Shown here: positions 699-59,062 of the stretch, piece after piece
Layout: the number at the start of each line of letters is the position of its first letter
Numbering within the stretch: position 1 is the stretch's first letter
Translations under genes and position numbers: made by a program
DNA from: Candidatus Nomurabacteria bacterium RIFCSPLOWO2_01_FULL_42_17
GTDB taxonomy: Bacteria; Patescibacteriota; Minisyncoccia; Phycocordibacterales; UBA9973
Reading direction: 5' to 3'
Assembly: GCA_001785985.1 (NCBI GenBank)
Contig: MFVE01000005.1
Span: 16,556-80,555 of the forward strand
Length of the DNA stretch: 64,000 bases
Notes under the pieces: model-generated
What the model was told of the DNA's origin: nothing
Seen by the model: only the letters and a program-made list of their open reading frames with translations
Database searches by the model: none

Positions 699-3600
699 TT
701 ATTCTTTGCTTACGCCTTTTCTTAAATTCACATCAAGCGCTAGACCTCTTAAATAATTTAAGAGCACATTGAATGACGCGGGAGAATTCGGCGGTCTGAT
801 TTTTTCATTTTTAATAATAGAATCAAAAGTCGCGGATCTACCGAGAATGTCGTCAGATTTGATCGTGAGCATTTCACGCAGTGTGTACGCCGCGCCGTAA
901 CCTTCGAGCGCCCAGACTTCCATTTCTCCGAATCTCTGTCCTCCGCCTTGAGCTTTTCCGCCGAGAGGCTGTTGAGTAATGAGCGAATAAGGCCCGATAG
1001 AACGCATGTGAATTTTGTCTTCCACCATGTGGTGCAGTTTGAGCATATACATACAACCGACAGCCACATCTTGCTCGAAAGCTTCTCCGGTGCGTCCGTC
1101 AAAAAGTTTTAATTTTCCATTCTCTGGCAAACCTGCCTTTACTAACTCTTCCTTTATCTCCTCATGCTTGGCCCCGAGAAATGGCGGAACAATCGCCTGA
1201 TAATTGAGAGTGTTCGCGGCCATGCCGAGATGCATTTCTAAAATTTGTCCCAAGTTCATACGAGAAGGAACACCGAGAGGCGAAAGAATAATATCAATTG
1301 GTGTACCATCCGCCATATAAGGCATATCTTCCTCCGGCAGAATGGTGGAGATGACTCCCTTGTTTCCATGTCTTCCGGAAAGCTTGTCGCCCACGGAAAT
1401 ATTTCTGATCTGGGCAACTTCGATGACAATCTTTTTTATAATCCCCGCTTCGAGCGTGTGTCCGAGGTCACGAGAAAAGATCTTTACTCCAATGATGCGT
1501 CCGCGTTTGCCGTGTTCTACTCGCAGTGACGTATCTTTGACATCACGCGCTTTTTCCGCAAAGATCGAACGCAAAAGCCGTTCTTCTGGAGTCAGTTCCG
1601 TCTCGCCTTTGGGAGTAATCTTGCCGACTAAGATGTCATTTTCTCTCACTTCCGCTCCAATGCGGACAATTCCGTCTTCATCGAGATCTTTGAGCTTGAG
1701 TTCGCCGACATTTGGTATGTCACGAGTGGTGATTTCAGGGCCAAGTTTCGTATCACGAACCACGCAAGTAAATTCCTCGACGTAAACGGAAGTAAATTTA
1801 CTCTTTTTGACTAAACGTTCAGAGACGATGATCGCGTCCTCATAAGTTGAACCAGACCAAGAGAGAAAAGCCACCAGAATATTTTGTCCGAGAGAAATTT
1901 GTCCGCCGACGGTGCTACTCGTATCGGCCAATATATCGCCTTTTTTTATTTTATCCCCCACATTTACGAGCGGGCGCTGGTGGAATACGGCAAAGTTGTT
2001 ATTCCTCATAAAATTAATCAGATTATAAGTTTTGTCCCCGCCCGCATGACTCGCGTCAGCGTGTCGGGCAGGTTTTTTCTCCCCGCCTGCAACGCTATGC
2101 GTAGCATTGCGGGCAGGTGATTTGCCTTCTACCACTATCTTTTTCGCATCTAAGTAAGAGACAACCCCGTCTTCGGTTGCGATAACTAATCGCCCTCCGT
2201 CTCGCGCCGCCAACTCTTCAATACCGGTCGCAACCAGCGGAGCTTCCGGCAAAACGCAAGGTACAGCTTGCTTCTGCATGTTTGATCCCATTAAGGCTCG
2301 GTTCGCATTGTTGTGTTCCAAAAATGGAATCATCGAAGTGGCGATAGAGAAAGCTTGATTGGGAGAGACGTCAATAAAATCAACTTCCTCTCGAGAAATT
2401 TCTCCTGGTTCTGTCTTGATTCTGGCTTCAACTTTTTCTTTGGTTATCTTGCCGGACTCATCATAAGGAATTCCCGCATGCGCAATGTTATATTTTTCTT
2501 CCTCTAGCGCATTTAAATAAACCACCTCGTCAGTCAACTTGCCATTCTTGACTTTGATATAAGGAGTTTCGATAATTCCGAAGTCATTAATCTTGGCATA
2601 AGTGGCAAGGTGTAAAATAAGTCCGATGTTTGGACCTTCCGGAGTATGAATCGGGCAGACTCGGCCGTAGTGCGAAGGGTGCACATCGCGGACTTCCAGC
2701 CCCGCGCGTTCGCGTGTGAGACCTCCGGGTCCGAGCGCGGAGAGGGTGCGCAGATGCTCTATTTCATAAAGCACATTTTCTTGCGCCATAAATTGAGAAA
2801 GCTGGTTGGTAGTGAAAAATTCTTTGATGCGAGCTTGAAGTGGACGCTGATTGATGATCGCGATCGGCATCGCGGTATCGACATCAATAATAGACATGCG
2901 GTCTTGGATATTTCGCTTTATCTGCATCATACCAGTGCGAACTTTTTGCTGTAAAATTTCTCCGACAAAACGCACGCGCCTCTGGCCCAAGTGATCGATG
3001 TCGTCCGCCTTGGCGTCGGCTGTATTGTTCAAAGAAATAATGTGCGCAATAACTGTCGCTAAATCTTCCTTGGAAATTGTGCGGCGCGCCATCTCGGCTT
3101 CATCCATCCCCTTGCCGAAACGTTGGTTGAATCTGAATCTTCCGACTGGAGAAAGATCATATCGTTCAGCCGTAAATAATGAATTGATGAATTCTTTGGC
3201 ATTGTCCGCAGTGGCCATATCGCCGTCTCGGAGACGTTTGTAAATTTCAATATAGGCCTCATTTAAAGTCTTGATCCCGTCTTTGGAGAGAGTTGTTTTA
3301 ATAATTCCCTCTGCCGTAGCATCCCCGCCTGCATCGATTTGCGAAGCATTGCGGGCAGGCTTTGAAAAAGCCTTGACGATCGCCTCGTCGGTCTCATAAC
3401 CCATCGCGCGTAGTAGCGCGGTCGCCGGGAATTTTCTCTTTTTGTCTATTCTGATATAAATTCCTCCATCCGCTTCGGATTCTATCTCGATCCAAACTCC
3501 GCGAGCTGGGATGATCTTGGCGCCGAAATATCTGTTACCCTTGCTTTCAGATTCCGTAAAGAAAACTCCGAAACTGCGCGCGAGTTGCGGCACAATCACG

Positions 3601-4157: not shown

Positions 4158-4835
4158 CTACTCTATTTCGTAATTTTTGTCAACTCTTTTCTTCCACTCT
4201 TCTATTTTTTTATGATTTCCAGAAAGTAGAACTTTTGGAACTTTGTAGTTTTTGTTTTTGTATTTCAAAACTTCCGGACGGGTATAGACTTCACTACTAG
4301 AGACTCTTTCTTCTTCTAATGATTCATATTTACCCAAAACTCCGGGAATCTGCCGAGAAATAGAATCAATCAAAACCATGGCTGGAAGTTCTCCACCAGT
4401 CAATACATAATCCCCTATCGAAATCTCTTCTGCGCGCAATATTTTTTGCACTCGAGCATCTATGCCTTCATATCTACCGGAAATCAGAATTATGTCCGTA
4501 TATTTCTTGGCAGAAGTTTTCGCGTATTTTGTCGTGAATTTTTTACCACTGGTTGAGAATATAATAGTTTTTAGCTTGTAGCTTGTAGCTTGTAGCTTTT
4601 TATAAATAGCTTGAACAGCTTTCAAAATAGGTTCAGCGCGCATAACCATTCCGGGCCCCCCGCCATAAGGCTTGTCGTCTACTGGCTTGTAATTATTTTT
4701 GGGTGCTTTTATAAAATCTCTAGGATTATAAAAAAGAATTTTAATCTTTTTATCCTTGATCGCCCGCCCAATAATAGATTCTCTTAAATAAGAATCAAAC
4801 ATCTCCGGAAAAATTGTGATTATATGAAAACGCAC
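4158..4835 (-). CDS. trmD: tRNA (guanine37-N1)-methyltransferase
   Basis: MRFHIITIFPEMFDSYL…YGGGPGMVM… is the TrmD SPOUT fold. It contains an in-frame AGCTTGT x3.5 repeat insert. Confidence 0.9.
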   Translation of the reverse strand: MRFHIITIFPEMFDSYLRESIIGRAIKDKKIKILFYNPRDFIKAPKNNYKPVDDKPYGGGPGMVMRAEPILKAVQAIYKKLQATSYKLKTIIFSTSGKKFTTKYAKTSAKKYTDIILISGRYEGIDARVQKILRAEEISIGDYVLTGGELPAMVLIDSISRQIPGVLGKYESLEEERVSSSEVYTRPEVLKYKNKNYKVPKVLLSGNHKKIEEWKKRVDKNYEIE

Positions 4836-5311: not shown

Positions 5312-5349
5312 CCCGGTAGTGAGACTTTTACTAAAGTTCTACTACCGGG
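5312..5349. repeat. Stem-loop CCCGGTAGTgag…ACTACCGGG (member of a GGTAGTGAG hairpin family)
   Basis: Perfect 9-bp inverted arms. Related hairpins occur at 23395-23435 and 29175-29202, each between co-directional minus-strand genes. Confidence 0.6.
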
Positions 5350-5363
5350 TCAATTCTTTTCTC

Positions 5364-5684
5364 TTACTTTTTTGCCTTTAATTCTTTGCGTTTTACCGTC
5401 GGCTTTTTCTTCGGCAGCACATTTACTTTCTTGCCTGCTATTACTTTGTCATGCACTAAAAAATTGTGAACGGTATCGGAAAGTTTCGCACCCTTAGAAA
5501 GCCAATATTTTATTCGGTCATTAACAAAGCTGATTCTTCCGCTCTTGTCTATCGCCTTTGGATTATAAGTGCCAAGCAATTCTAAAAATTTTCCGCTCTT
5601 GGTGCTGTTTTTGGAATCAGTCAAAACCACCCGAAAAGCCGGATCGTTCTTTCTACCTATTCTCTGCAATCTTATTTTTAACAT
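5364..5684 (-). CDS. rpsP: 30S ribosomal protein S16
   Basis: MLKIRLQRIGRKNDPAFRVVLTDS…GTYNP is the S16 signature. Confidence 0.92.
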   Translation of the reverse strand: MLKIRLQRIGRKNDPAFRVVLTDSKNSTKSGKFLELLGTYNPKAIDKSGRISFVNDRIKYWLSKGAKLSDTVHNFLVHDKVIAGKKVNVLPKKKPTVKRKELKAKK

Positions 5685-5817: not shown

Positions 5818-7824
5818 ATGAAAATCTCTAACGGGATGAAAAAAAATCTAAAAAATAACCACCAGAACAGATTGCAGGGCGTTATATCCATTTCCTCAAA
5901 AGGCACTGGTTATGTAGCCGTTGGTGACAAGAAGGACGATCAGGATCCGGAAATTGATGCTAAACATTTGAATACGGCTCTGCATGGAGACCTCGTAGAG
6001 ATAATTCTCCACCCAAAAAGCAAAGGTAGGCAAACAGCGGAAGTTTCAAAAATAATCTCCCGAGCGAAAACTCGTTTTGCTGGAGTTTTAGAGCAGGAGG
6101 GTCATATGATTTTCTTGAAACCGGACGATACAAAAATGTATACGGACATTCTAATTCCGGAGAATATGCTCCACGACGCAAAAGCTGGACAAAAAGTTTT
6201 TGTAGAGATGGTCTCATGGCTTGATCCCCGCAAAGCGCCAGAAGGAAAAGTCACTAAAGTTTTGGGTCAGCCGGGGGACAATGATGCAGAAATGCATGCG
6301 ATCGCGATAGAGAAAGGTTTTGATTCGCAATTGCCAAAAAAAGTTCACGAAGAAGCAGAAAAAATAAAAGCGAGTGGCATCCAAGAGATTGATTACGTAG
6401 GACGAAGGGATTTCAGAAAGACTTTAACCTTTACCATTGACCCATCGGATGCAAAAGATTTTGATGATGCTATATCTTTTAAAGAGCTCCCTCTCCTTAA
6501 CAAGGAGAGGGCGGGGGGTGAGGTGAATTACGAAATAGGGATCCACATCGCGGATGTTTCGCACTATGTGAAAGTTGGTAGCGCCTTAGATATCGAGGCG
6601 CGCGAACGCGGCACTTCGGTTTACTTGGTAGATAGAACCATACCAATGTTGCCAGAGATACTCTCAAACGATTTATGCAGTTTGGTGCCAAATAAAGATC
6701 GGCTCACCATGAGCGCAGTCTTTGTGATAGATAAGAATGCAAAAGTGAAAAGCGAATGGTATGGACGCACGGTCATCCATTCTCAAAAAAGATTCACCTA
6801 TGAAGAAGCCGAAATTTCAATCAATAAATCGGGAACTCCCCTGCATAAAGAATTATCTATTTTGAATAATCTGGCAAAGCTCCTAACGAAAGAAAGATTC
6901 GCGCAGGGCGCCATATCGCTCGATCAAGAAGAGGTAAAATTTGTTTTAGATAAAAACGGAGTGCCAATAAAAGTGGTCAGCAAAGAACGCGGGGATTCGA
7001 ATAGACTGATTGAAGAATTCATGCTTTTGGCAAATAAAAAAGTAGCGGAGGTATTGTCTCCAAAAAAAGTAAAGGGAAGCGAAAAGAAAGACGAAAGCGT
7101 ATCTATATATCGCGTCCACGATCTGCCGAGCAAAGAAAAGATGGCCGACTTGGCATTCTTTCTGCGAAGCTTGGGGCATAAAATAACTCTCCAAGATGGC
7201 ATTATTCCTAGCTCTGAAATAAATCATCTCTTAAAAAAATTGGAAGGCAAGAGTGCAAATGAGACAATCAGAAATACGGTGAGTCGAGCAGTGGTGAGAT
7301 CTATGGCTAAAGCCATTTATTCTACTTTAAACATCGGACATTACGGACTCGCATTCCCCTACTATACACACTTTACTTCTCCGATCAGGCGATATCCGGA
7401 CATCATGATTCACCGATTGCTCTCTGGTTATCTCGCCAAGAAAAAAGTCGGGAAAGACAGACTGCTCGAATATGAAAAAATCGCTAGGATTTCATCCGAG
7501 CAAGAAAAACGCGCCTCGGATGCAGAGCGAGCTTCTATCAAGTACAAACAAGTCGAATATATGAGCAAGCGTTTGGGTGAAAGTTTTGAAGGAGTGATCA
7601 GCGGAATCACAGAATGGGGCATTTATGTGGAAGAAATAGAAACAAAATGCGAAGGCTTGGTGCGGGTGAGAGATCTAAGTGATGATTTTTATGTCTTCAA
7701 TGAAAAGAAACTAGAATTAATGGGCCAAAAAAAGAAAAAAAGGTATCGCTTGGGCGATCGTGTTAAAATCAAAGTAAAAGGTGTTGATTTGGAGCGCAAA
7801 ACTATAGACTATATTTTGATCTAG
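5818..7824 (+). CDS. rnr: Ribonuclease R (cold-shock/OB, RNB and S1 domains)
   Basis: 668-aa protein with RNB catalytic motifs (…DPSDAKDFDDAISF…, HYGLAFPYYTHFTSPIRRYPD) and a C-terminal S1 domain. It carries an in-frame GC-rich palindromic insert at 6487-6527. Confidence 0.9.
   Translation: MKISNGMKKNLKNNHQNRLQGVISISSKGTGYVAVGDKKDDQDPEIDAKHLNTALHGDLVEIILHPKSKGRQTAEVSKIISRAKTRFAGVLEQEGHMIFLKPDDTKMYTDILIPENMLHDAKAGQKVFVEMVSWLDPRKAPEGKVTKVLGQPGDNDAEMHAIAIEKGFDSQLPKKVHEEAEKIKASGIQEIDYVGRRDFRKTLTFTIDPSDAKDFDDAISFKELPLLNKERAGGEVNYEIGIHIADVSHYVKVGSALDIEARERGTSVYLVDRTIPMLPEILSNDLCSLVPNKDRLTMSAVFVIDKNAKVKSEWYGRTVIHSQKRFTYEEAEISINKSGTPLHKELSILNNLAKLLTKERFAQGAISLDQEEVKFVLDKNGVPIKVVSKERGDSNRLIEEFMLLANKKVAEVLSPKKVKGSEKKDESVSIYRVHDLPSKEKMADLAFFLRSLGHKITLQDGIIPSSEINHLLKKLEGKSANETIRNTVSRAVVRSMAKAIYSTLNIGHYGLAFPYYTHFTSPIRRYPDIMIHRLLSGYLAKKKVGKDRLLEYEKIARISSEQEKRASDAERASIKYKQVEYMSKRLGESFEGVISGITEWGIYVEEIETKCEGLVRVRDLSDDFYVFNEKKLELMGQKKKKRYRLGDRVKIKVKGVDLERKTIDYILI
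6487..6527. repeat. GC-rich palindromic element inserted in frame in rnr (CCCTCTCCTTaacAAGGAGAGGG + GGGGGTGAGGTG)
   Basis: Inverted repeat in an AT-rich gene, encoding LPLLNKERAGGEV. Homologous copies occur in ligA (28098-28138) and recG (54194-54230). Confidence 0.8.
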
Positions 7825-14064: not shown

Positions 14065-15309
14065 ATGGAAAAAGAGATTAATGAAATGGATAAAAATGAT
14101 CATCGAGTGATAGGCAAAGAGTTGGACCTGTTTACTTTTTCCGAACTTGTCGGACCCGGGCTTCCGCTATGGACGCCAAGGGGCACCGTGGTGCGTGAAG
14201 AACTAGACAAATTTGTGGGAGAGCTCAGAGAAAAATATGGCTACACCCGCGTGACCATCCCCCATATTACAAAACGTGAATTATATGAGAAATCGGGACA
14301 TTGGGATAAATTTTCTGATGAACTTTTCCGCATTACATCCCGTGAAGGAAAGGAATATGCATTAAAGCCAATGAGCTGTCCCCATCACACTCAGATCTTC
14401 GACCGCAAGCCGCATTCATATAGGGAGATGCCACAAAGATACGCTGAAACAACCATGGTCTATCGCGACGAACAATCAGGCGAGCTCGGGGGCCTAACTC
14501 GCGTGCTTTCTATAACTCAAGATGATGCGCATGTTTTTTGCAGGCACAATCAAGTCAAAGAGGAATTTTTAAAGATCTGGGATATCGTTGATACATTCTA
14601 CAAAACTTTTGGATTTAGTTTAAAAGTAAGATTATCTTTTCGCGATCCGAAAGAACAAAAAAAATATTTAGGCACAAAAGAAATCTGGGATACTGCAGAA
14701 AATGAACTTCGTAGTATCGCCGAAGAACGCAAGAAAGAATTTAAGACGGATTACTTTGAAGGTCTGGGTGAAGCTGCACTATACGGACCAAAGCTAGACT
14801 TCATGGCAAAAAATTCTGCCGGACGACAGTGGCAGGTGGCGACAATACAATTGGACATGAACCTGCCAGAGAGATTTGATCTAAATTGCATCAATGAAAA
14901 GGGAGAAAAAGAAAGAATAGTAATGATTCATGCAGCCATCACCGGCTCCCTAGAAAGATGCACAGCAGTATTGATTGAGCACTTTGTCGGAGCTTTCCCT
15001 CTCTGGCTCTCACCGGTGCAAGTAAAAGTGATTCCAGTGCGTGAAAATCATAATGAATATGCAAAGGAAGTTTTTGAGATGCTCAAAGAAAATAATATCC
15101 GCGCAGAATTTGATGATAAAGATGAGAACCTCGGCACCAAAGTCCGCGACGCGAAAAATAACAAGATCCCGTACTGGATCGTCATTGGCGACAAAGAAAT
15201 AGAAGCCGGCAAAGTCACCCTCGAATCCCGCGACTCCGGCCAGCTCGGTCAAATATCAACAGAAGAACTAGCAAAAAAACTTTTAGAGGAAATAAAAAAT
15301 AAGAAGTAA
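14065..15309 (+). CDS. thrS: Threonyl-tRNA synthetase, short form (class II catalytic core + anticodon-binding domain; lacks N-terminal TGS/editing domains)
   Basis: ThrRS class II motifs (…MSCPHHTQIF…, …YRDEQSGELGGLTRVLSITQDDAHVF…) in a 414-aa protein. Confidence 0.88.
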   Translation: MEKEINEMDKNDHRVIGKELDLFTFSELVGPGLPLWTPRGTVVREELDKFVGELREKYGYTRVTIPHITKRELYEKSGHWDKFSDELFRITSREGKEYALKPMSCPHHTQIFDRKPHSYREMPQRYAETTMVYRDEQSGELGGLTRVLSITQDDAHVFCRHNQVKEEFLKIWDIVDTFYKTFGFSLKVRLSFRDPKEQKKYLGTKEIWDTAENELRSIAEERKKEFKTDYFEGLGEAALYGPKLDFMAKNSAGRQWQVATIQLDMNLPERFDLNCINEKGEKERIVMIHAAITGSLERCTAVLIEHFVGAFPLWLSPVQVKVIPVRENHNEYAKEVFEMLKENNIRAEFDDKDENLGTKVRDAKNNKIPYWIVIGDKEIEAGKVTLESRDSGQLGQISTEELAKKLLEEIKNKK

Positions 15310-15310
15310 T

Positions 15311-17392
15311 TTAAATATCAATCTCGGCGAGTTTGGCATTGGATTGGATGAAAGATTTGCGCGGAGGGACTTCGGATCCCATTAGGATGTCGAAAATTTT
15401 ATTCGCTTCTTCGGCGTCATCTATGTTTACCTTTTTTAATACGCGGTGCGCCGGATCCATCGTCGTCTCCCAGAGTTCTTCTGGATTCATTTCACCGAGA
15501 CCTTTATAACGTTGGATGTGAATTTTTGCAGACTTTTCTTTCCCGACGCTCTCCTCTTCTCCTTCCTTTGCCTCGCCAGAGTCGTCCTCGACGTCGGCGG
15601 GTTGTATATCGCTTATGTCTGCGCCTTTACCAACAATCTTTATTCTTTCTTCATCTGTATAAGCATAGGAAATTTCCTTGCCCTTTTTTATTTTATAAAG
15701 CGGTGGTTGAGCGATGTAAATATATCCAGCATCAATAATTTGTCTAAAATATCTATAAAAAAGTGTCAGCAGAAGCGTACGAATATGTGAACCATCCACA
15801 TCGGCATCGGTCGCAATGATTATCTTATGATAACGCATCTTTGCCAAATCAAATGTATCTCCGATAGAAGTGCCGAGCGCAATCACTAGAGATTTTATTT
15901 CTTTTGAAGCGAGCATCTTGTCTATACGCGCGCGTTCAACATTTAAAATTTTACCTTTCAGCGGCAAGATCGCTTGAGTGCGACGGTCTCTACCTTGCTT
16001 CGCGCTACCTCCCGCAGAATCTCCCTCGACTAAGAATAGTTCCGACTCCTCGGCATTTTTGCTCTGACAATCTGCCAATTTACCTGGAAGCGTCATTCCT
16101 TCGAGAGCGCCTTTTCGTAGAATGGAATCCTTCGCGGCTTTGGCAGCTTTGCGGGCCTTGAGAGCTAAAATAGACTTATTTATAATGACTTTTGCTTCAT
16201 CGGGATTTTCTTCTAAGAAATTATTAAAAGCCTCACCGAAAACAGTCGCCACCGCTCCTTGGGCTTCCATACTTCCTAATTTTGCTTTGGTTTGACCTTC
16301 AAATTGAATCTCGCGCAGTTTTACAGAAATAGCCACAGTTAAACCTTCCAGCACATCTTCGCCAGTAAATCCTCCTTCGGACTCTTTCATCATTTCATTT
16401 TTCTTGCAGTAAGTATTGAGAGTCCTCGTGAGCGCGGTCTTGAAACCTGTCACATGCGTGCCACCTTCGGGAGTGTTGATATTGTTAGCAAAAGGCACGA
16501 TGCGATCCACGATGTCATCCACATATTGGAGAGCTATTTCTACTCCCACGCCATCCAACTCTTTTTCAACATAAAAAATATTGCTCTGAATCGGTTTTTG
16601 AAATTTATTGTAATATTTTATGAGAGAAATTAGTCCGCCTTCAAAGTAAAAAGAGATAGATGGAAGCTCTAGGCCGAGATCTCGGAAATAAAAGACATCA
16701 CTATCATCCATCCCCTTTTTATCATGTAGTTCTTTTGCGTCTCTCGCATCGATTATTAAGATCTTTAATCCTTTAACTAAATAAGCTTGCTGGCGAATAT
16801 GGTTGACCACCGTATTCCAATCGAATTTAATATCTTTAAAGATTTCTACATCTGGTTCAAAAGTTACAATGGTTCCATGAAGTTTTGAGCTACCAACTTT
16901 TTTCACCGCGGACTTTTTCTTGCCTTGTGAATATTCTTGAACATATTTACCGCCATCTCTATGAACTTCTGCCTTACAAAAAATAGAAAGAGCATTGACC
17001 ACAGAGGCCCCAACTCCATGTAGACCGCCGGAAACTTTGTAGCCTTCTCCGCCGAACTTTCCTCCGGCGTGCAGAGTCGTCATCACCGTCTCGAGCGCGG
17101 AAACTTTTGTTTTTTTATGAGTGTCTACTGGTATACCTCGGCCATTGTCTGCGACTCGTACGCGATTACCTGGGAGAAGCACCACTTCAATATCATTACA
17201 AAAACCGCCCATCGCTTCATCGCGCGAGTTGTCAAAAATCTCCCACACCAAATGATGAAGCCCTTCTGGTCCAGTGGTACCAATATACATCCCCGGACGA
17301 CGTCTGACGGGCTCTAAACCCTCTAAAACCGATATATCTGAAGCGTCATAGTGGTGCCCATTACCCTTCTTTGTTACGTCTTCTTTTGCCAT
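15311..17392 (-). CDS. gyrB: DNA gyrase / type IIA topoisomerase subunit B
   Basis: GHKL ATPase (…LHAGGKFGG…GLHGVGASVVNALS), Toprim (…LVEGDSAGGSAKQGRDR…) and a C-terminal …KGLGEM… motif. Confidence 0.9.
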   Translation of the reverse strand: MAKEDVTKKGNGHHYDASDISVLEGLEPVRRRPGMYIGTTGPEGLHHLVWEIFDNSRDEAMGGFCNDIEVVLLPGNRVRVADNGRGIPVDTHKKTKVSALETVMTTLHAGGKFGGEGYKVSGGLHGVGASVVNALSIFCKAEVHRDGGKYVQEYSQGKKKSAVKKVGSSKLHGTIVTFEPDVEIFKDIKFDWNTVVNHIRQQAYLVKGLKILIIDARDAKELHDKKGMDDSDVFYFRDLGLELPSISFYFEGGLISLIKYYNKFQKPIQSNIFYVEKELDGVGVEIALQYVDDIVDRIVPFANNINTPEGGTHVTGFKTALTRTLNTYCKKNEMMKESEGGFTGEDVLEGLTVAISVKLREIQFEGQTKAKLGSMEAQGAVATVFGEAFNNFLEENPDEAKVIINKSILALKARKAAKAAKDSILRKGALEGMTLPGKLADCQSKNAEESELFLVEGDSAGGSAKQGRDRRTQAILPLKGKILNVERARIDKMLASKEIKSLVIALGTSIGDTFDLAKMRYHKIIIATDADVDGSHIRTLLLTLFYRYFRQIIDAGYIYIAQPPLYKIKKGKEISYAYTDEERIKIVGKGADISDIQPADVEDDSGEAKEGEEESVGKEKSAKIHIQRYKGLGEMNPEELWETTMDPAHRVLKKVNIDDAEEANKIFDILMGSEVPPRKSFIQSNAKLAEIDI

Positions 17393-26531: not shown

Positions 26532-28637
<2,106 letters not shown>

Positions 28638-30239: not shown

Positions 30240-30875
30240 TTAATTTACTTGAATTCTTCCTGATAGATATATTTTAATTTTAGCATTGGCTGATTTCGGC
30301 GAAGCAATACTGATTTGCACATAGGAAACAGCAGAAGAAAAAGAAGTGCTTGATTTTATTTCTGCGCTCGAGCTGGGTCTAGAAAAAGAAATAGTTAGAT
30401 CGTCTAAGGACTCAGAACCGCCGGATTGATAAAAAACATCTAAACTGGAAATGTAATTCCCCCTGGTAATAGTAATCGGATCTATGCATTCCCCTGTGCA
30501 GTCCGAGCCATCAAACAAGCCATCTTCGTTGAGATCAGAAAAATAAATAAAACTTTCATCATCAGCTGCTTTATCTATGTGGACTCCATAGGCAGGTTTC
30601 CAGGTTGAATCTATCTGCAACTGCTGGGTCAAGGGCGGCAATTTGCCGGACAAAGATGACTTTTGCGCTTCCACAATCTTCAAAGCAATATCGCTGGCTA
30701 AATTTTTGATATCGACTTTCGCTTGAAATTCCCCGTAATTAAAAATGACAATAGAGGCCATGACAGAAAAAATACTCAACACAACAATGAGCTCTACATA
30801 GGTCATTCCTCTATTCAGCTTATTAGCTTGTAGCTTGTAGCTTGTAGTATTTGGTATTTTAAAATTAAAAATCAT
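30240..30875 (-). CDS. Type IV pilin-like protein with prepilin leader
   Basis: …NRG|MTYVELIVVLSIFSVMASIV. The leader contains the in-frame TSYKLQA repeat insert. Confidence 0.6.
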   Translation of the reverse strand: MIFNFKIPNTTSYKLQANKLNRGMTYVELIVVLSIFSVMASIVIFNYGEFQAKVDIKNLASDIALKIVEAQKSSLSGKLPPLTQQLQIDSTWKPAYGVHIDKAADDESFIYFSDLNEDGLFDGSDCTGECIDPITITRGNYISSLDVFYQSGGSESLDDLTISFSRPSSSAEIKSSTSFSSAVSYVQISIASPKSANAKIKIYLSGRIQVN

Positions 30876-44353: not shown

Positions 44354-44556
44354 ATTTACTAGAAAAATTCAGACACCCTTTCTTGGCATACTTTTTATAA
44401 AGCAATCTATCTGGCACAGCTGTGCCAGCGAACTGCTCGTCGATCAAGAAAATAATAGAAAGAGTACTTTCTTTATTTTCTAATCTCCTGCGCAAGGCTT
44501 TCTAAAAAGTACGCCTGCGACGAGTAAGTCTGAATTTTTCTAGATTCTTTGGACTC

Positions 44557-44673
44557 TAGTGCAAGCAAAAGTGTTCTCTAAAATATCGTACGGAGAGGGG
44601 CGGGTCCGAAAGTCTTAGCAAATTTCAAGCCTAAAAATTATGCGGGTATTTTAGAGAATATTTTTGCTGGAAC
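44557..44673. repeat. Left arm of 117-bp inverted repeat bracketing the fibre cassette
   Basis: Reverse complement of 47741-47857 with 2 mismatches over 117 bp. Contains an internal 13-bp inverted repeat (TTCTCTAAAATA…TATTTTAGAGAA). Confidence 0.9.
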
Positions 44674-44676
44674 ATT

Positions 44677-47223
44677 TTAAATTTCTGGAGCGGGTTCTGT
44701 GGATTCAGAGTCCTCAACTACATCAGCCTCTGGTGCAGATGCTTCTTCCGATTCGGGTTCAGGTTCGGGAGTTACTTCAGGAGTAGATTCAGATTCCTCC
44801 GTCTCAGACGGAGGCGTTACCTCTGCATCAGAAACTTCAGAAGTTTCATCAGCCGGCTCGTCCACCGTCTCTTCCGCTACAGGCATTTCTTCATTGCTTT
44901 CTTGCTCAGAAGCCTGCCCTGTACCAGAGCTCTGCTCTTGGTTCGGGGAATTTCCATCATTTCCTAACATAGCATCCAGCTGACTTCTAGTATAGCAAGA
45001 AGTGCCGTTTGCATCTTTCAAACAAACTTCATCTAGAGTGGCCTTTTCTGCAAAGATATTTGTAATCCCATTCCCCACATCCCCCATCCAAGCAGTGAGT
45101 TTGGCATAGACATTGTCAAAGAAAGCAGTGACGAAAGATTGGTTAGATGAGCCTTCGAGCGGAGTGATGGTGCCAGAGATGGCGTTTAGGTTTAGATTGA
45201 GTTCATCTAGTTTGGTATTCGTCGCTTGGAGACCTAGCACCATATAGCCCAGAGTGTTCACAGGGTTCACGATGGTGCCTTTGTAGTGCATGGCCCAGGG
45301 TGCTTCATCTGCCATGACACCGACATATTCTGTGATGGTGTCTCCGGTTCCCATGCCTGGTTTGTAATGGAATTTATATATTTTGGTATTGAGGATTTGA
45401 GTGAGAGCTTCATTTGGATCATCTACTGTGCTAATGACGTCCTTTAATTCACGGGAAGAGGCAGCCGATGCCCAGGAAGTGATGCCGTCTCCTCCTGCAT
45501 CGGTGAGCTGTTGACCAGCAGAGCCTACTGCAGTGGGTAAGGTTAGAGTCCAGGTGCCAGCCGCTGCGGCTGTCTGCATTGTGACTACTCCAGATGTTCC
45601 TCCTGCTAAAGACATAGTACCTGCTCTGGAACCTGCTGTACCTAATGTAAGTAATGCGACCGGAGAATTATTTCCAATTCCGATTACTGCGTCTGTGTCT
45701 ACAGTGGTGCCAGTGGCATTTACGTTTAGGCCAAAAATTGTGTTGCCGATGACGAGCTGGTTGGAAGTTGTAGCCGAGGGAGCGTCAACATCATAACCTA
45801 TGATGAGATTATTAGAACCAGAAGTAATGGCATCACCTGCTCCTAAACCAATCGCAATATTATTATCCCCCGTCGTCACTGCCGTCAGAGCGTTGTATCC
45901 AAAAGCAGAGTTGTCATCTCCGCCGTTTGAGGTGTCAAGAGCGAGAGAACCGAAAGCGGAGTTGCGGGTGCCGGTTGTTTCTGTTGTCAGAACATTATAA
46001 CCAAAAGCAGAGTTATTGTCGGCGGTGGTATTAGCGTCAAGCGCCAAAGCTCCAAAAGCTGCATTTTGAGTGCCGGTTGTGTTGACACCCAAAACGTTAT
46101 AGCCAAAAGCGCTGTTGTTGTTGGCTGTAGTATTGGCACTAAGCGCAAAAGCTCCAACAGCTGTATTTTGAGTGCCAGTGGTGTTAGCATTAAGCGTAAA
46201 TGATCCGAAGGCTGAATTATTGTTGGCGGTGGTATTAGCACTAAGCGCTAAGGATCCAAATGCGGAATTTCTAATTCCAGTAGTATTAGCGCCCAAAACA
46301 TCGGGGCCAAAAGCTGCATTTTGAGTGCCAGTGGTGTTAGCGGTTAAAACATTATACCCAAAGGCAGAGTTTAAACTACCAGTGGTGTTGGCATCAAGTG
46401 CGAAAGATCCAAAGGCCGAGTTTGAACCACCGGTGGTGTTGGATATTAAAGCGTTATACCCGATCGCCACATTATCATCTCCCGTAGTGATAGCTGTGCC
46501 TGCATCAGCACCAACCGCCGTATTTCTTAATCCACTTGCAGCTGTAAGAGAATCAAGTGCGGTGCTTCCAAGAGCAGTGTTGCCATCGCCTGCAGAAGTT
46601 TGAGTAAAACCTGTAAGTGTTGCTCCATTCGGGATGGTGAGAGTTCCAGTGCTGGAGGTGATGGTGAGGCCGTTGATACTTGTAGCTGTGGCAACTCCAA
46701 GAACTGGAGTGACCAATGTCGGAGAAGTAGCTAAAACCAAAACCGTGCCACTGCCTGTGGTCGTCATTTCTCCGAGAACGCCAGCGTTGTTGTAGAGAAC
46801 TCTGCCGGATGTACCGCTGGTAATGGAAGTGGTGCCTACTGTGAGTCCGGTACTTAACGTCGCCCAAGTGAGTACTCCACTCCCATCCGTCTGCAGGTAT
46901 TGGCTAGCAGTACCGTCATCTGTGGGAAGAGTTAGAGTATATGTGCCAGCGATAGCAGCTGGTTGAATGATGATTTCACCAGAGGTACTGCCAGTGAGAG
47001 TGAGAAAATCTGTGGTGACTTCTGCTGCCATAGACTTGGCAAGACTTTGGACGTTGCTGTCGATTGAATTTAATGTTCCATTGAGTTGAGCGTCGAAGAA
47101 AGCTCGGGTGACGAATTGAGAGGGGTTTAGATTATCTGCCCCCCCCCCTCGGTCCTGCTGGACCTTGAATTCCCTGAGGGCCCATTGGTCCCTGGGGTCC
47201 TTGAGGTCCAGCGACGTAAACAA
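44677..47223 (-). CDS. Phage-tail-fibre-like surface protein with Gly/Asn-rich NTTGxxNxAFG repeats and C-terminal intramolecular-chaperone (Peptidase_S74/endosialidase chaperone) domain plus acidic tail. Probably the 3' part of a gene fused to 47132-47443 via a G10 tract.
   Basis: More than 12 tandem repeats (…NTTGTQNAAFG…). Ser-Lys dyad motif SSRELKDVIS…DDPNEALTQILNTKIYKFHYK typical of auto-cleaving tail-spike/fibre chaperone domains. The annotated Met start is probably not real. Confidence 0.75.
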   Translation of the reverse strand: MFTSLDLKDPRDQWALREFKVQQDRGGGADNLNPSQFVTRAFFDAQLNGTLNSIDSNVQSLAKSMAAEVTTDFLTLTGSTSGEIIIQPAAIAGTYTLTLPTDDGTASQYLQTDGSGVLTWATLSTGLTVGTTSITSGTSGRVLYNNAGVLGEMTTTGSGTVLVLATSPTLVTPVLGVATATSINGLTITSSTGTLTIPNGATLTGFTQTSAGDGNTALGSTALDSLTAASGLRNTAVGADAGTAITTGDDNVAIGYNALISNTTGGSNSAFGSFALDANTTGSLNSAFGYNVLTANTTGTQNAAFGPDVLGANTTGIRNSAFGSLALSANTTANNNSAFGSFTLNANTTGTQNTAVGAFALSANTTANNNSAFGYNVLGVNTTGTQNAAFGALALDANTTADNNSAFGYNVLTTETTGTRNSAFGSLALDTSNGGDDNSAFGYNALTAVTTGDNNIAIGLGAGDAITSGSNNLIIGYDVDAPSATTSNQLVIGNTIFGLNVNATGTTVDTDAVIGIGNNSPVALLTLGTAGSRAGTMSLAGGTSGVVTMQTAAAAGTWTLTLPTAVGSAGQQLTDAGGDGITSWASAASSRELKDVISTVDDPNEALTQILNTKIYKFHYKPGMGTGDTITEYVGVMADEAPWAMHYKGTIVNPVNTLGYMVLGLQATNTKLDELNLNLNAISGTITPLEGSSNQSFVTAFFDNVYAKLTAWMGDVGNGITNIFAEKATLDEVCLKDANGTSCYTRSQLDAMLGNDGNSPNQEQSSGTGQASEQESNEEMPVAEETVDEPADETSEVSDAEVTPPSETEESESTPEVTPEPEPESEEASAPEADVVEDSESTEPAPEI

Positions 47224-47740: not shown

Positions 47741-47857
47741 GTTCCAGCAAAAATATTCTCTAAAATACCCGCATAATTTTTAGGCTTGAAATTTGCTAAG
47801 ACTTTCGGACCCGCCCCTCTCCGTACGATATTTTATAGAACATTTTTGCTTGCACTA
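47741..47857. repeat. Right arm of 117-bp inverted repeat bracketing the fibre cassette
   Basis: See 44557-44673. Lies in the 5' leader/promoter region of the cassette operon. Confidence 0.9.
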
Positions 47858-47878
47858 GTCTGCGACGAGTTTGTAATT

Positions 47879-53056: not shown

Positions 53057-53121
53057 TCCATAAAAAAATTGATTATCTGATAACAGCATTTATTATACCA
53101 ACTGATAGTAAATAGCGCTAG

Positions 53122-53208
53122 CGGATGAGGTGAGATTCGAACTCACGGTCCTTTTTAGGGGACGGCGGTTTAGTAAACCGCTACCTTAAGCCACTCGGTC
53201 ACTCATCC
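53122..53208 (-). tRNA. Class II tRNA (Ser-like: long variable arm, discriminator G) with apparent anticodon ACU (loop UUACUAA)
   Basis: Reverse complement folds with acceptor GGAUGAG/CUCAUCC, D-stem ACC/GGU, anticodon stem GCGGU/ACCGC, variable arm GUCC…GGAC and T-arm GUGAG-UUCGAAU-CUCAC. The A34 anticodon is unusual, so the assignment is tentative. Confidence 0.55.
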
Positions 53209-53298: not shown

Positions 53299-53387
53299 GG
53301 AGCCGTGTTGGAGTGGTCTATCAAGCATCTTTGCTAAAGATGTAGGGGCTTTAAAACCCCTCGAGGGTTCGAATCCCTCCGGCTCCG
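53299..53387 (+). tRNA. tRNA-Ser (anticodon GCU)
   Basis: Acceptor GGAGCCG/CGGCUCC, anticodon stem CAUCU/AGAUG, loop UUGCUAA, long variable arm, T-arm GAGGG-UUCGAAU-CCCUC and discriminator G. Confidence 0.85.
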
Positions 53388-53392
53388 CCTTT

Positions 53393-53754: not shown

Positions 53755-55965
53755 ATGGAACTGCACGACAAACTAGAGGTGAAATTCCGTCTAGATCCAA
53801 TCCAAAGAAGAGCTCTCTCGAAGCTCAAGCTCTTTTCAGTTGCTGATTTGCTTTTTCACTTCCCTATTCGCTACAGCGACATCAGTGAGGTAAAAAAGAT
53901 TACCGAACTAACCCCGGGAGACATGGCGACGGTATATGGAAAAGTCTCAAAATTAAAAACCAAAAAAAGTTTTCGCTCAAGAATTCCTATGGCTGAGGGC
54001 GAAATTGCGGACTTGTCCGGTAAAATAAAAATAATTTGGTTCAACCAAGCCTATTTAGCCAAGATGCTCCACGACGGAGATAATGTGAAATTAACGGGCA
54101 AAGTAACAGCAAGTAAGAATGGTGCCTATCTGGCCAATCCAGAATTTGAAAAGATGAAAAATATGCCGATAGATTCGCACGATAGTCTTTTTACACCCTC
54201 ACCCCGGCCCTCTCCCGAAGGGAGAGGGAGTCGGGAGACGACTGGATTATCCTATCCTATCTACGCTGAAACTCGCGGAATAACTAGCAAGTGGTTTTAT
54301 CATGCAATAGAAAAAATACTAAGAGAAAAAACTTTGGATAATATTACAGACTATATACCCGGCGATATTTTAAAAAAATACAGTTTACCAACTCTGAAAA
54401 CCGCGCTGATCTGGATTCATAAGCCAAAAAATGCCAAGGACGCGCAGTCGGCGCGCAAAAGATTCGCCTTCGAAGAAGTTTTCTGCATTCAGCTCGAGCG
54501 CCAACATGACAAGTTTGAGTACAGAAAAAATAAATCTTTCCAAGTAAAAACTTCTGAGAAAAATGTGGCGGATTTTTTAAAACGCTTTCCCTTTGAACCC
54601 ACAAATTCTCAGAAAAAATCGATTGAAATAATCTTGGGAGATATGGCAAAAACTTTCCCAATGTCTCGACTATTGGAGGGCGACGTCGGAAGTGGAAAAA
54701 CTGCGGTGGCTGCCACCGCTAGTTATGTGACAGTGCAAGAACGTCCGAGTGGGCAAAATTTTGGCAATTTGCAAGTTGCCTATATGGCACCGACGGAAAT
54801 TTTAGCAACTCAGCATTTTGAATCTTTTATCGAATATTTCAAACACTTACCGATAAATATCGGACTCATCACTGGGTCTGGTTGTAGAAAATTCCCCTCC
54901 AAAACTCAGGTGTACGGCCCCGCCGGAGGCGGGGTAAACTGGACGACAATCTCGCGAGCACAACTTTTGAAATGGGTAGCTAATGGAGAAATACCTATTC
55001 TCATAGGCACGCACGCACTGATTCAGAAAACGGTTAAATTTAAAAACTTGGCTCTGGTCGTGATAGATGAACAACACAGATTCGGCACAGCCCAAAGAAG
55101 AAAACTGGTTCGCAAAGACAACGTTGCTCCGCATTTGCTCTCGATGACGGCCACCCCTATCCCCCGCACGCTCGCACTCACTATTTATGGAGACCTCGAC
55201 CTCTCACTCCTCGATGAAATGCCCGCCGGCAGAAAAGAAATAATTACAGAAATTATAACGCCAAATAAACGCGAAGAAACCTATGAAAAAATAAAAAAAG
55301 AATTAAAAGACGGCAGACAGCTCTATGTGATTTGCCCGAGAATTTTCGAGCCAAATCCAGAAAAAGAATTAGCGCTCAATGTAAAATCTGCAGTAGAAGA
55401 AGCTAAAAGATTAAAAAAAGGGGTTTTCAAAGAATATGAAATAGGCGTACTCCACAGCAAGATGAGCAAAGAGAAAAAAGAAGAAGTAATGGAAGATTTC
55501 GTTTCCGGTAAAATAAATATTTTGTGCGCGACATCAGTGGTGGAAGTAGGAGTAAATGTGCCAAACGCCACTGTAATAATAATAGAGGGCGCGGAGCGGT
55601 TCGGCTTGGCGCAACTCCACCAGCTTCGTGGACGCGTAATCAGAAGTACACATCAAGCTTACTGCTTTATTTTTGCAGACGCTAAAAGCGACAAGACCAT
55701 AGCTAGATTGAAAGCCTTAAAAACTGCAAAAAATGGTTTTGAACTTGCAGAATTAGACCTGACTCTCCGCGGCGCGGGCGAACTCGGAGGAACCAAACAA
55801 TGGGGCATCACCGACCTCGGAATGGAAGCGATAAAAAATATAAAAATGGTCGAAGCCGCCCGCACGGAAGCGATTCGCCTAATAGAAACCGACCCCGAAC
55901 TTTCTAAGTATCCGTTATTAAAATCTAAGGTAAAAACTAAGGCAGGAGAATTCCACTTTGAGTAA
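53755..55965 (+). CDS. recG: ATP-dependent DNA helicase RecG
   Basis: Wedge/OB N-terminus, DEAH-type helicase motifs (…GDVGSGKTAVA…, …VIDEQHRFG…, …QLRGRV…). Contains an in-frame GC-rich palindromic insert at 54194-54230. Confidence 0.92.
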   Translation: MELHDKLEVKFRLDPIQRRALSKLKLFSVADLLFHFPIRYSDISEVKKITELTPGDMATVYGKVSKLKTKKSFRSRIPMAEGEIADLSGKIKIIWFNQAYLAKMLHDGDNVKLTGKVTASKNGAYLANPEFEKMKNMPIDSHDSLFTPSPRPSPEGRGSRETTGLSYPIYAETRGITSKWFYHAIEKILREKTLDNITDYIPGDILKKYSLPTLKTALIWIHKPKNAKDAQSARKRFAFEEVFCIQLERQHDKFEYRKNKSFQVKTSEKNVADFLKRFPFEPTNSQKKSIEIILGDMAKTFPMSRLLEGDVGSGKTAVAATASYVTVQERPSGQNFGNLQVAYMAPTEILATQHFESFIEYFKHLPINIGLITGSGCRKFPSKTQVYGPAGGGVNWTTISRAQLLKWVANGEIPILIGTHALIQKTVKFKNLALVVIDEQHRFGTAQRRKLVRKDNVAPHLLSMTATPIPRTLALTIYGDLDLSLLDEMPAGRKEIITEIITPNKREETYEKIKKELKDGRQLYVICPRIFEPNPEKELALNVKSAVEEAKRLKKGVFKEYEIGVLHSKMSKEKKEEVMEDFVSGKINILCATSVVEVGVNVPNATVIIIEGAERFGLAQLHQLRGRVIRSTHQAYCFIFADAKSDKTIARLKALKTAKNGFELAELDLTLRGAGELGGTKQWGITDLGMEAIKNIKMVEAARTEAIRLIETDPELSKYPLLKSKVKTKAGEFHFE
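54194..54230. repeat. GC-rich palindromic element inserted in frame in recG (CACCCTCACCCC…CCCTCTCCCgaaGGGAGAGGG)
   Basis: Same family as the rnr and ligA inserts. Encodes …SPRPSPEGRGS…. Confidence 0.8.
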
Positions 55966-56090
55966 AAAGCCGCCTGCCCGCAATGCTAAAGCATAGCTTT
56001 TGCAGGCGGGGGAATTCCATTTTGAATGATGTTATCACTTTGAGACAGCCGTCAATTTTGATAACATTAATATTTGTTAATAACAGGTGC
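55948..56090. repeat. Direct repeat 1 (GAATTCCACTTTGA-hairpin CCGCCTGC…GCAGGCGG-GAATTCCATTTTGA), doubling as a terminator between recG and the Pif1-like gene
   Basis: About 72 bp at roughly 93% identity to 58927-58998, with weaker similarity for another 60 bp. 8-bp GC stem followed by T-run on the minus strand. Confidence 0.7.
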
Positions 56091-58926: not shown

Positions 58927-59062
58927 GAATTCCACTTTGAATAAAAGCTGCCTGCCCGCAATGCTAAAGCATAGCTTTTGCAGGCGGGGAGAATTTCATT
59001 TTGAGTAATTGTAATGTTTTTACTACACTGACGGCCGTTAGTTTGGTAAACATTAATAATTA
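58927..59062. repeat. Direct repeat 2 (same element as 55948-56090), downstream of the GNAT gene
   Basis: See 55948-56090. Confidence 0.7.

Follow-up and report, generated by a model that had tools for sequence, protein, structure and literature searches.

We analysed a 64,000-nucleotide stretch of DNA (the window) from Candidatus Nomurabacteria RIFCSPLOWO2_01_FULL_42_17, which belongs to the Candidate Phyla Radiation (CPR), and found that a short GC-rich element, CCTCACCCC-N2-4-CCCTCTCC-loop-GGAGAGGG, occurs there three times, once each in rnr, ligA and recG and in frame in all three genes. Judged by their sequence, these three sites belong to the BoxC / PIT / TM_ECO class of potential intrastrand triplex (PIT) motifs, which is not lineage-specific. 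We consider it probable that they are solo copies of an element of this type which have persisted in tolerant loops of essential enzymes, and, as part of the same judgement, that the element acts at the DNA level and is no protein motif. New here is the setting, as in-frame occupation of variable loops in essential enzymes is without earlier report; our literature search returned no report of intragenic BoxC or other triplex motifs in CPR bacteria.

Three copies of a three-arm element

The core of the element, CCCTCTCC-N3-9-GGAGAGGG, had exactly three matches in the window (6489-6511, 28113-28135 and 54208-54228), compared with none in 100 dinucleotide-preserving shuffles, and a pattern search of the same 64 kb yielded no fourth copy. 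Each copy is enclosed by a single long open reading frame (ORF), namely rnr (RNase R, 668 amino acids; 5818-7824, + strand), ligA (NAD-dependent DNA ligase, 693 amino acids; 26532-28613, - strand) and recG (736 amino acids; 53755-55965, + strand). The encoded Rnr shares 100% identity with the protein of Candidatus Nomurabacteria bacterium RIFCSPLOWO2_01_FULL_42_17, which is classed with the Patescibacteria/CPR. The elements measure 33-37 nt. Within each, 9-11 bp close a 3-nt loop to form a hairpin (-9.7 to -12.3 kcal/mol, folded as DNA), of which one arm is all-pyrimidine and the other all-purine. In all three copies the CCTCACCCC block lies 2-4 nt from this hairpin (on the opposite strand in the rnr copy) and makes up a third arm whose sequence mirrors that of the purine arm, T standing opposite A. 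The third arm (CCTCACCCC/GGGGTGAGG) was left unpaired in Watson-Crick folds of each single strand. When the window was scanned with the rules for purine-motif triplexes (G.G-C, A.A-T and T.A-T triads), exactly three sites with at least 8 perfect triads were returned, compared with none in 20 shuffled windows. On the triad rule, the window copies can be predicted to fold as intrastrand triplexes.

In the rnr copy (6487-6527), the + strand is both the purine form and the rnr sense strand. Its C stem CCCTCTCCTT (6489-6498) is followed by the loop AAC (6499-6501), G stem 1 AAGGAGAGGG (6502-6511), a second loop CGGG (6512-6515) and the mirror third arm GGGTGAGG (6516-6523); the hairpin has 10 bp (-10.2 kcal/mol as DNA), the third arm is unpaired, 8 perfect purine-motif triads are possible, and the encoded peptide is LPLLNKERAGGEV. 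The ligA copy (28098-28138) has the pyrimidine form on the + strand, but since ligA is read from the - strand its sense strand is again the purine form. Here the third arm CCTCACCCC (28100-28108) precedes a linker TAG (28109-28111), the C stem CCCCTCTCCTT (28112-28122), the loop GGT (28123-28125) and the G stem AAGGAGAGGGG (28126-28136), giving an 11-bp hairpin (-12.3 kcal/mol as DNA) and a peptide of 13 residues. In the recG copy (54194-54230), the + strand is the pyrimidine form and the recG sense strand, with the third arm CCCTCACCCC (54196-54205), a linker GG (54206-54207), the C stem CCCTCTCCC (54208-54216), the loop GAA (54217-54219) and the G stem GGGAGAGGG (54220-54228), and the peptide is TPSPRPSPEGRGS. 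The sense strand is therefore the purine strand in rnr and ligA and the pyrimidine strand in recG, resulting in different peptides; this occurrence in both orientations, with different peptides, argues that the element works as DNA and not through the peptide that it encodes.

A sequence-only reading of this DNA had previously located the same three copies, in both orientations and in frame, and had given the same encoded peptides, including that of recG; these observations were reproduced, and its view of a repeated DNA-level element was supported. It had, however, treated the element as a simple palindrome and its CACC block as a 5' extension, whereas we found a 9-11 bp hairpin with an unpaired third arm, so that the supposed extension is the key part of the architecture. 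The contrast in base composition that it described is real for the elements (GC 0.61, 0.63 and 0.73), but with 0.417 for the whole window the genome is moderately, not strongly, AT-rich. Its proposal of a REP-like, lineage-specific family had to be replaced by that of a pan-bacterial BoxC / PIT / TM_ECO motif.

This family was recognized through a full-text literature search with the two arm sequences, which retrieved the paper of Holder et al. 2015 (PMC4666352), in which the element called BoxC, then PIT and finally TM_ECO is given the pattern CCCTCNCCC-N3-6-GGGNGAGGG-N3-GGGNGAGGG. The reverse complement of the recG copy matches this pattern exactly, with a type B loop CCG, and the rnr copy matches once each stem is shortened by one base; the blocks of the ligA copy are the same, but its stems have 9 nt and the inner one ends in TT/AA. 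The rnr and ligA copies depart from TM_ECO in their inner stem, to which TT/AA is added in place of C/G, a feature shared with other low-GC genomes. Besides the published pattern, the window copies share with BoxC/TM_ECO the core sequence and the three-block triad rule, a high GC content, a dispersed, multi-copy occurrence on both strands, loops that are less conserved than the stems, and the lack of an adjoining transposase. They differ in location, because TM_ECO was described from Proteobacteria (3610 copies across 262 genomes) and its 23 copies in E. coli MG1655 are always intergenic (PMC4666352), whereas all three window copies are inside ORFs, in frame in essential genes of a CPR bacterium. 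We regard intergenic location as descriptive of the E. coli copies and not as defining for the class. Holder et al. did not find mobility genes beside the motifs (PMC4666352). Salmonella reportedly lacks TM_ECO. At the gathering threshold, Rfam reported only tmRNA and tRNAs in the window and no match at the elements. Earlier work on BoxC / PIT elements is reportedly that of Bergler 1992, Bachellier 1999, and Hoyne and Maher 2000 and 2002.

The exact pattern CCTCACCCC-N2-4-CCCTCTCC-N3-9-GGAGAGGG, with its 25 specified bases, was found at no fewer than 120 loci from most bacterial phyla in contigs representing one genome per species (596 Gb), where we estimate that chance would yield ~0.02 matches. 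The matches listed include Pseudomonas, Xanthomonas, Enterobacteriaceae, Acinetobacter, Rhodopseudomonas, Chloroflexota, Bacteroidota, Planctomycetota, Verrucomicrobiota, Acidobacteriota, Cyanobacteria, Bifidobacterium and Dehalococcoidia, as well as another Nomurabacteria genome, and among them flanks are unrelated and loops variable. The pattern is also present in at least 120 viral or prophage contigs. A 62-nt query consisting of an enterobacterial copy and its flanks matched 4410 of 5426 complete E. coli genomes, at a median of 4 places; the E. coli matches listed are unannotated spacers, and the hrpB-mrcB spacer holds two copies in inverted orientation. In other low-GC genomes, 7 of 22 copies were deep inside long ORFs, compared with 71% for random positions, and four of these ORFs, with the element in frame, had Pfam support as real genes (for Dus, LeuRS, a C-N hydrolase and a NuoM-like protein). 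CPR bacteria are thus not alone in having intragenic copies.

Insertion loops in Rnr, LigA and RecG

The Rnr insert covers residues ~225-237, where the RNB domain begins and one beta strand turns into the next; at this point B. subtilis RNase R (8cdu) shows a 9-residue alignment gap. In LigA, the insert (residues ~163-176) is in an adenylation-domain loop with a 10-residue gap in E. coli LigA (2owo), and in RecG it falls at residues ~147-160, in a loop of the N-terminal wedge-domain region that is a variable stretch relative to T. maritima RecG (1gm5). An AlphaFold2 model of Rnr placed the insert between strands E218-224 and E237-245; this model was poor (mean predicted local distance difference test score 63.7, shallow alignment) and was used only for the strand-turn-strand placement.

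Close relatives frequently have no insert at these positions. In 67 of 120 Rnr homologues at 75-83% identity, the loop that follows F[KR]E is native and short, with 4-5 residues (e.g. KEM-GKDE-YEIGIHIADV), while the remaining ones bear inserts of at least eight kinds at the same loop, two of which (types A and C) are complete three-arm units at different positions within it. The short loop prevails in 80 more distant Rnr relatives (47-81% identity), among which inserts are confined to the closer ones. The basal loop is likewise short in roughly half of ~120 close relatives for LigA and for RecG; the window-type insert was seen in ~25 LigA relatives and, besides the window, in 4 RecG relatives, with other insert families accounting for the rest. 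Insert family RPPRPSGTPPSQGE and some others are common to Rnr and RecG. Judged from these alignments, the same loops are hot spots that have been hit recurrently by diverse triplex-type inserts, and the inserted peptides are lineage-specific insertions, as had been proposed on the sequence alone; consistent with this, alignment of homologues did not reveal the same peptide in distant orthologues. A neighbour-joining tree of the 120 Rnr homologues, constructed to count independent insertions, was star-like at ~80% identity: only type D was clearly monophyletic, and the scatter of the other insert types was indistinguishable from poor resolution.

Comparison of the Rnr-loop inserts of different genomes (numbered loci such as L285) showed that their arm sequences differ yet co-vary in all three blocks. 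The C stem, G stem and third arm read CCCTCTCC / GGAGAGGG / GGGTGAGG in the window and L285, CCCCTCC / GGAGGGG / GGGGTGG in L125 and L148, and CTCCCCC / GGGGGAG / GAGGGGG in L128 and L147, where a small hairpin is contained within loop 2; L141 has both CCTCCCC / GGGGAGG / GGAGGGG and TCCCCCT / AGGGGGA / AGGGGGT. This co-variation of the three arms suggests that the three-arm architecture itself is what is maintained. We also asked whether third arms are mirror or direct repeats of the purine arm, a comparison that was uninformative for 7-mers (several of which are their own mirror) and was rerun with 8-mers: among 15 distinct hairpins with 8-bp purine arms in 1.18 Mb of CPR DNA, the third arm was a mirror repeat in 12 and a direct repeat in 1. 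Between the window and L285, none of the 11 stem codons differed, as opposed to 8 of 20 flanking codons, and within an insert type the variable residues fall in the two DNA loops and the conserved residues in the arms.

The same loops are part of a broader set of variable positions. In window numbering, insertion hot spots were found in Rnr after residue 94 and at 224-237, in LigA after residues 108, 165-167, 244 and 439, and in RecG after residues 150 and 538; at these, a quarter to a third or more of ~120 Nomurabacteria relatives carried P/S/L/G/E/R/K-rich inserts of at least 7 residues. This suggests that GC-rich structured repeats have been colonising CPR proteins widely.

Origin and persistence of the copies

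As we read it, the element combines a polypyrimidine arm with a complementary polypurine arm, the two forming the hairpin, and has its third arm, a mirror of the latter, at a distance of 2-4 nt; when single-stranded, the purine strand could fold into an intrastrand triplex of the purine-motif type, built from G.G-C, A.A-T and T.A-T triads. The copies would be non-autonomous, and would have reached these sites either by insertion or through replacement of a patch of native loop. In a gene-dense Nomurabacteria genome, copies landing in tolerant loops of essential enzymes would survive, whereas out-of-frame insertions in essential genes would be lethal and hence never observed. As TAA, TAG and TGA each require T together with purines, arms composed only of purines or only of pyrimidines are free of stop codons in any frame of both strands, which would make inserts tolerable in both orientations, and the P/S/L or G/E/R/K residues that such arms encode would be suited to flexible loops. 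The earlier claim that the ORF is always kept intact is true of the three window copies, but probably reflects survivorship, aided by the stop-free arms; some copies are intergenic in other phyla and also in CPR relatives (L285, 1550-1606; L286, 21387-21423). With respect to the fold, the E. coli consensus formed a stable triplex in vitro as single-stranded DNA, as observed by circular dichroism and nuclear magnetic resonance (PMC4666352).

Several observations weigh against parts of this explanation. No target-site duplications or flanking direct repeats were visible at the copies and no clean empty site was seen, and neither the window nor the CPR loci contained a candidate mobilising gene. 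Between empty and filled loops the net gain was 9-10 residues, whereas an element of 33-41 nt amounts to 11-13 codons; this indicates that native loop residues were partly replaced. Such partial replacement is unlike the prediction of a simple cut-and-paste insertion, although it fits insertion followed by trimming, or short-patch copying. In L284, three synonymous changes disrupt the hairpin while the peptide is retained, so the DNA structure is not always maintained. The CPR loci were selected via rnr, and the census of copies in them is correspondingly biased. As for triplex formation in cells, a dimethyl sulfate footprint was absent in vivo and the duplex form gave no triplex signal (PMC4666352).

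Partial replacement of the native loop, instead of pure extension, would also be expected if the motifs had been generated or copied in place by errors of replication or repair (template switching, slippage, or short-patch gene conversion from other copies), seeded at native pyrimidine- or purine-rich codons. We think such an origin rather unlikely, even though the ligA C stem coincides with conserved, pyrimidine-rich native IPL(S/L)L codons, one relative (P0124) shows an almost residue-for-residue replacement, target-site duplications were not seen, and Holder et al. found local genome variability to be raised at the motifs and linked them to local instability (PMC4666352). Local errors do not readily explain why one set of 25 specified bases keeps appearing in different phyla, with loops that vary, or why complete three-arm units are found at different positions of one loop, as in Rnr types A and C; moreover, template switching yields inverted and not mirror repeats. 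It is still harder to believe that a REP-associated tyrosine transposase (RAYT, Y1) has mobilised the elements as REP sequences, in the manner of classical REP/RAYT units (REPtrons), and we rejected this link as quite improbable. REPs are likewise GC-rich hairpins, and RAYT-like Y1_Tnp genes are present in CPR relatives (L286, 15035-15772, and also L144, L153, L170 and L202). The L286 gene, however, is bracketed by a different repeat, TACGGAGGC...GCCTCTGTA, and not by triplex motifs; no RAYT gene is present in the window, an unbiased clustering of motif-adjacent ORFs produced no Y1 transposases, and REP families are usually species-specific, while the core studied here is identical across phyla. 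The L286 locus is from Nomurabacteria RIFCSPLOWO2_01_FULL_39_18, in which the RAYT-like gene has its own REP-like repeats at 15050-15110 and 15780-15830.

Two further explanations would have the insert kept for what it encodes or transcribes. Selection of the peptides for protein function, as flexible linkers or interaction loops with the DNA repeat being secondary, could account for the persistence of inserts in many lineages and for L284, but appears very improbable given that opposite orientations produce unrelated peptides, that most close relatives work with a loop of 4-6 residues, that the variable residues correspond to the DNA loops and the conserved ones to the arms, and that in E. 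coli and many other bacteria this DNA element lies between genes. To a role in mRNA, such as translation pausing or stabilisation of the message, we assign next to no probability. Stable hairpins of 9-11 bp would form in RNA too, and the purine strand has a Shine-Dalgarno-like AAGGAG; against this, the element occurs in both orientations relative to the gene and is missing from relatives, purine-motif triplexes do not form in RNA (PMC4666352, introduction), and promoter or terminator activity was not seen for PIT elements in E. coli (PMC4666352). Solo copies of a BoxC / PIT / TM_ECO-type element, retained where the host protein tolerates them, remain our preferred explanation.

Candidate partner nuclease, related systems and other repeats

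Genes for DUF559, a Vsr-like PD-(D/E)XK nuclease, were associated with the motifs in other genomes. In a Cytophagales leuS (L032, 6629-7100), an exact copy of the element is followed by an in-frame DUF559 domain (PF04480, E = 3e-34), beyond which lies another triplex-type element; the nuclease falls between the catalytic and editing domains of LeuRS. In a betaproteobacterial metG (L015, 2111-2649), an in-frame DUF559 lies between two inverted copies, before the C-terminal tRNA-binding domain of MetRS. Stand-alone DUF559 ORFs are bracketed likewise in L041 and L012, a remnant is found beside a copy in L048, and a set of 120 motif-selected viral contigs contributed two further bracketed genes (L330 and L348). 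All six full DUF559 domains in 240 motif-selected loci (mean 7.8 kb) were within ~200 nt of a motif, for which we estimate a chance probability of ~5e-7, and in the unbiased clustering of motif-neighbour ORFs DUF559 was the only family represented in at least four loci. When 80 DUF559 loci were instead chosen by protein alone, the same GC-rich hairpin-plus-third-arm element was present on both sides, in inverted orientation, in 17 of the 29 closest and in none of the 51 distant loci; several of the bracketed loci have a loop-2 hairpin, as do CPR inserts.

E. coli K-12 has a single DUF559 gene, ycjD, whose stop codon is overlapped by a motif-like hairpin and whose 3' end is followed, after ~165-175 nt, by a BoxC. 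BoxC was reportedly first described next to envM (now fabI), the neighbour gene of ycjD. E. coli strains that lack ycjD have a different island beside fabI, with a breakpoint ~40 nt before BoxC. In the K-12 locus (L203), a 23-nt stretch of the ycjD 3' end (5339-5361) is duplicated ~100 nt downstream (5443-5465), between the gene and BoxC, and looks like the remnant of a second DUF559 copy.

It is possible, and we put this forward tentatively as something we would not yet expect to prove correct, that BoxC/triplex motifs are the terminal repeats of a hitherto unrecognised selfish unit, a DUF559 gene between inverted elements, of which solo copies would be non-autonomous derivatives or footprints. 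Our literature search returned no paper linking DUF559 to these repeats. The Vsr/DUF559 clade is known to contain a group I intron homing endonuclease (PMC3424549). What speaks against such a unit is that a search of the window and of 1.08 Mb of CPR loci (L123-L202) yielded no DUF559, that the gene is present in only 2-4% of motif loci, that the orientation of bracketing copies is not uniform, and that E. coli strains offered no clean pair of alleles with and without ycjD plus BoxC.

By analogy, this arrangement suggests something akin to the REP/RAYT unit but with another class of enzyme: in both, short GC-rich hairpin repeats bracket an enzyme gene as inverted copies, yet the RAYT enzyme is a Y1 HUH transposase and the enzyme here a nuclease. 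DUF559 units also resemble homing endonuclease genes and inteins in being nuclease units in frame in essential genes (leuS, metG), from which the window copies differ in that these solo copies carry no nuclease. The DUF559 domain appears to stay within the host protein, unlike inteins; no intron or intein splicing elements turned up at the leuS and metG units, where no search aimed at them was made. Rickettsia palindromic elements are palindromic repeats that lie in frame in protein genes, including essential ones, of a reduced genome and add peptides to the products; they are ~100-150 bp long, group into sequence families peculiar to Rickettsia and are not known to possess a third arm in mirror repeat. 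The parallel that the sequence-only reading had drawn with them is apt for behaviour, in that the window copies too are in-frame insertions at tolerant positions of protein-coding genes, but their length (33-37 nt), Nomurabacteria host and BoxC/TM_ECO core set them apart from that family.

Other repeats were observed in the window. A second GC-rich palindrome family, CCCCGCCTGC...GCGGGCAGG, has three in-frame copies (2035-2072, 2080-2117 and 3322-3359) in an rpoB-like 1122-amino-acid open frame on the - strand (RNA polymerase beta subunit), and two related copies (55965-56011 and 58943-58989, 98% identical) are outside long ORFs, one of them directly after the recG stop codon. Within ligA, a palindrome of 27+27 nt (27841-27896; 93% complementary, 2 nt between the arms) is in frame, encodes a 19-residue peptide and is not of the triplex type; its site, after residue 244, is an insertion hot spot in 32 of 120 LigA relatives. 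Short tandem runs of the heptamer GCTTGTA are located at 4562-4629, 26734-26794 (the 3' part of ligA), 30807-30867 and 32873-32919, some of them in frame in ORFs. Inverted repeats of 118 nt (44556-44673 and 47741-47858, 98% complementary) flank ~3 kb with an 871-amino-acid open frame that contains 51-nt (17-residue, NTTGxxNSAFG-like) tandem repeats at 45950-46440. Just upstream of recG are two tRNA-Ser genes (53121-53208, - strand, and 53299-53389, + strand), of which only the former, with an unusual anticodon ACT (ARAGORN), was reported by Rfam.

BoxC / PIT / TM_ECO elements are among the most widespread small bacterial repeats, and these results extend them to the Candidate Phyla Radiation and indicate that the motifs can reside in frame in essential genes of replication, repair and RNA decay. 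Annotators should treat GC-rich P/S/L-G/E/R loop peptides in CPR proteins as footprints of a DNA element, not as protein features. The DUF559 link provides a testable candidate for an enzyme that acts on the motifs. If the proposed DUF559 unit is correct, units or their solo ends could enter essential genes in frame, with the nuclease in leuS and metG and without it in rnr, ligA and recG, and this would account for the origin and spread of BoxC/PIT elements, a question that dates from the 1990s.

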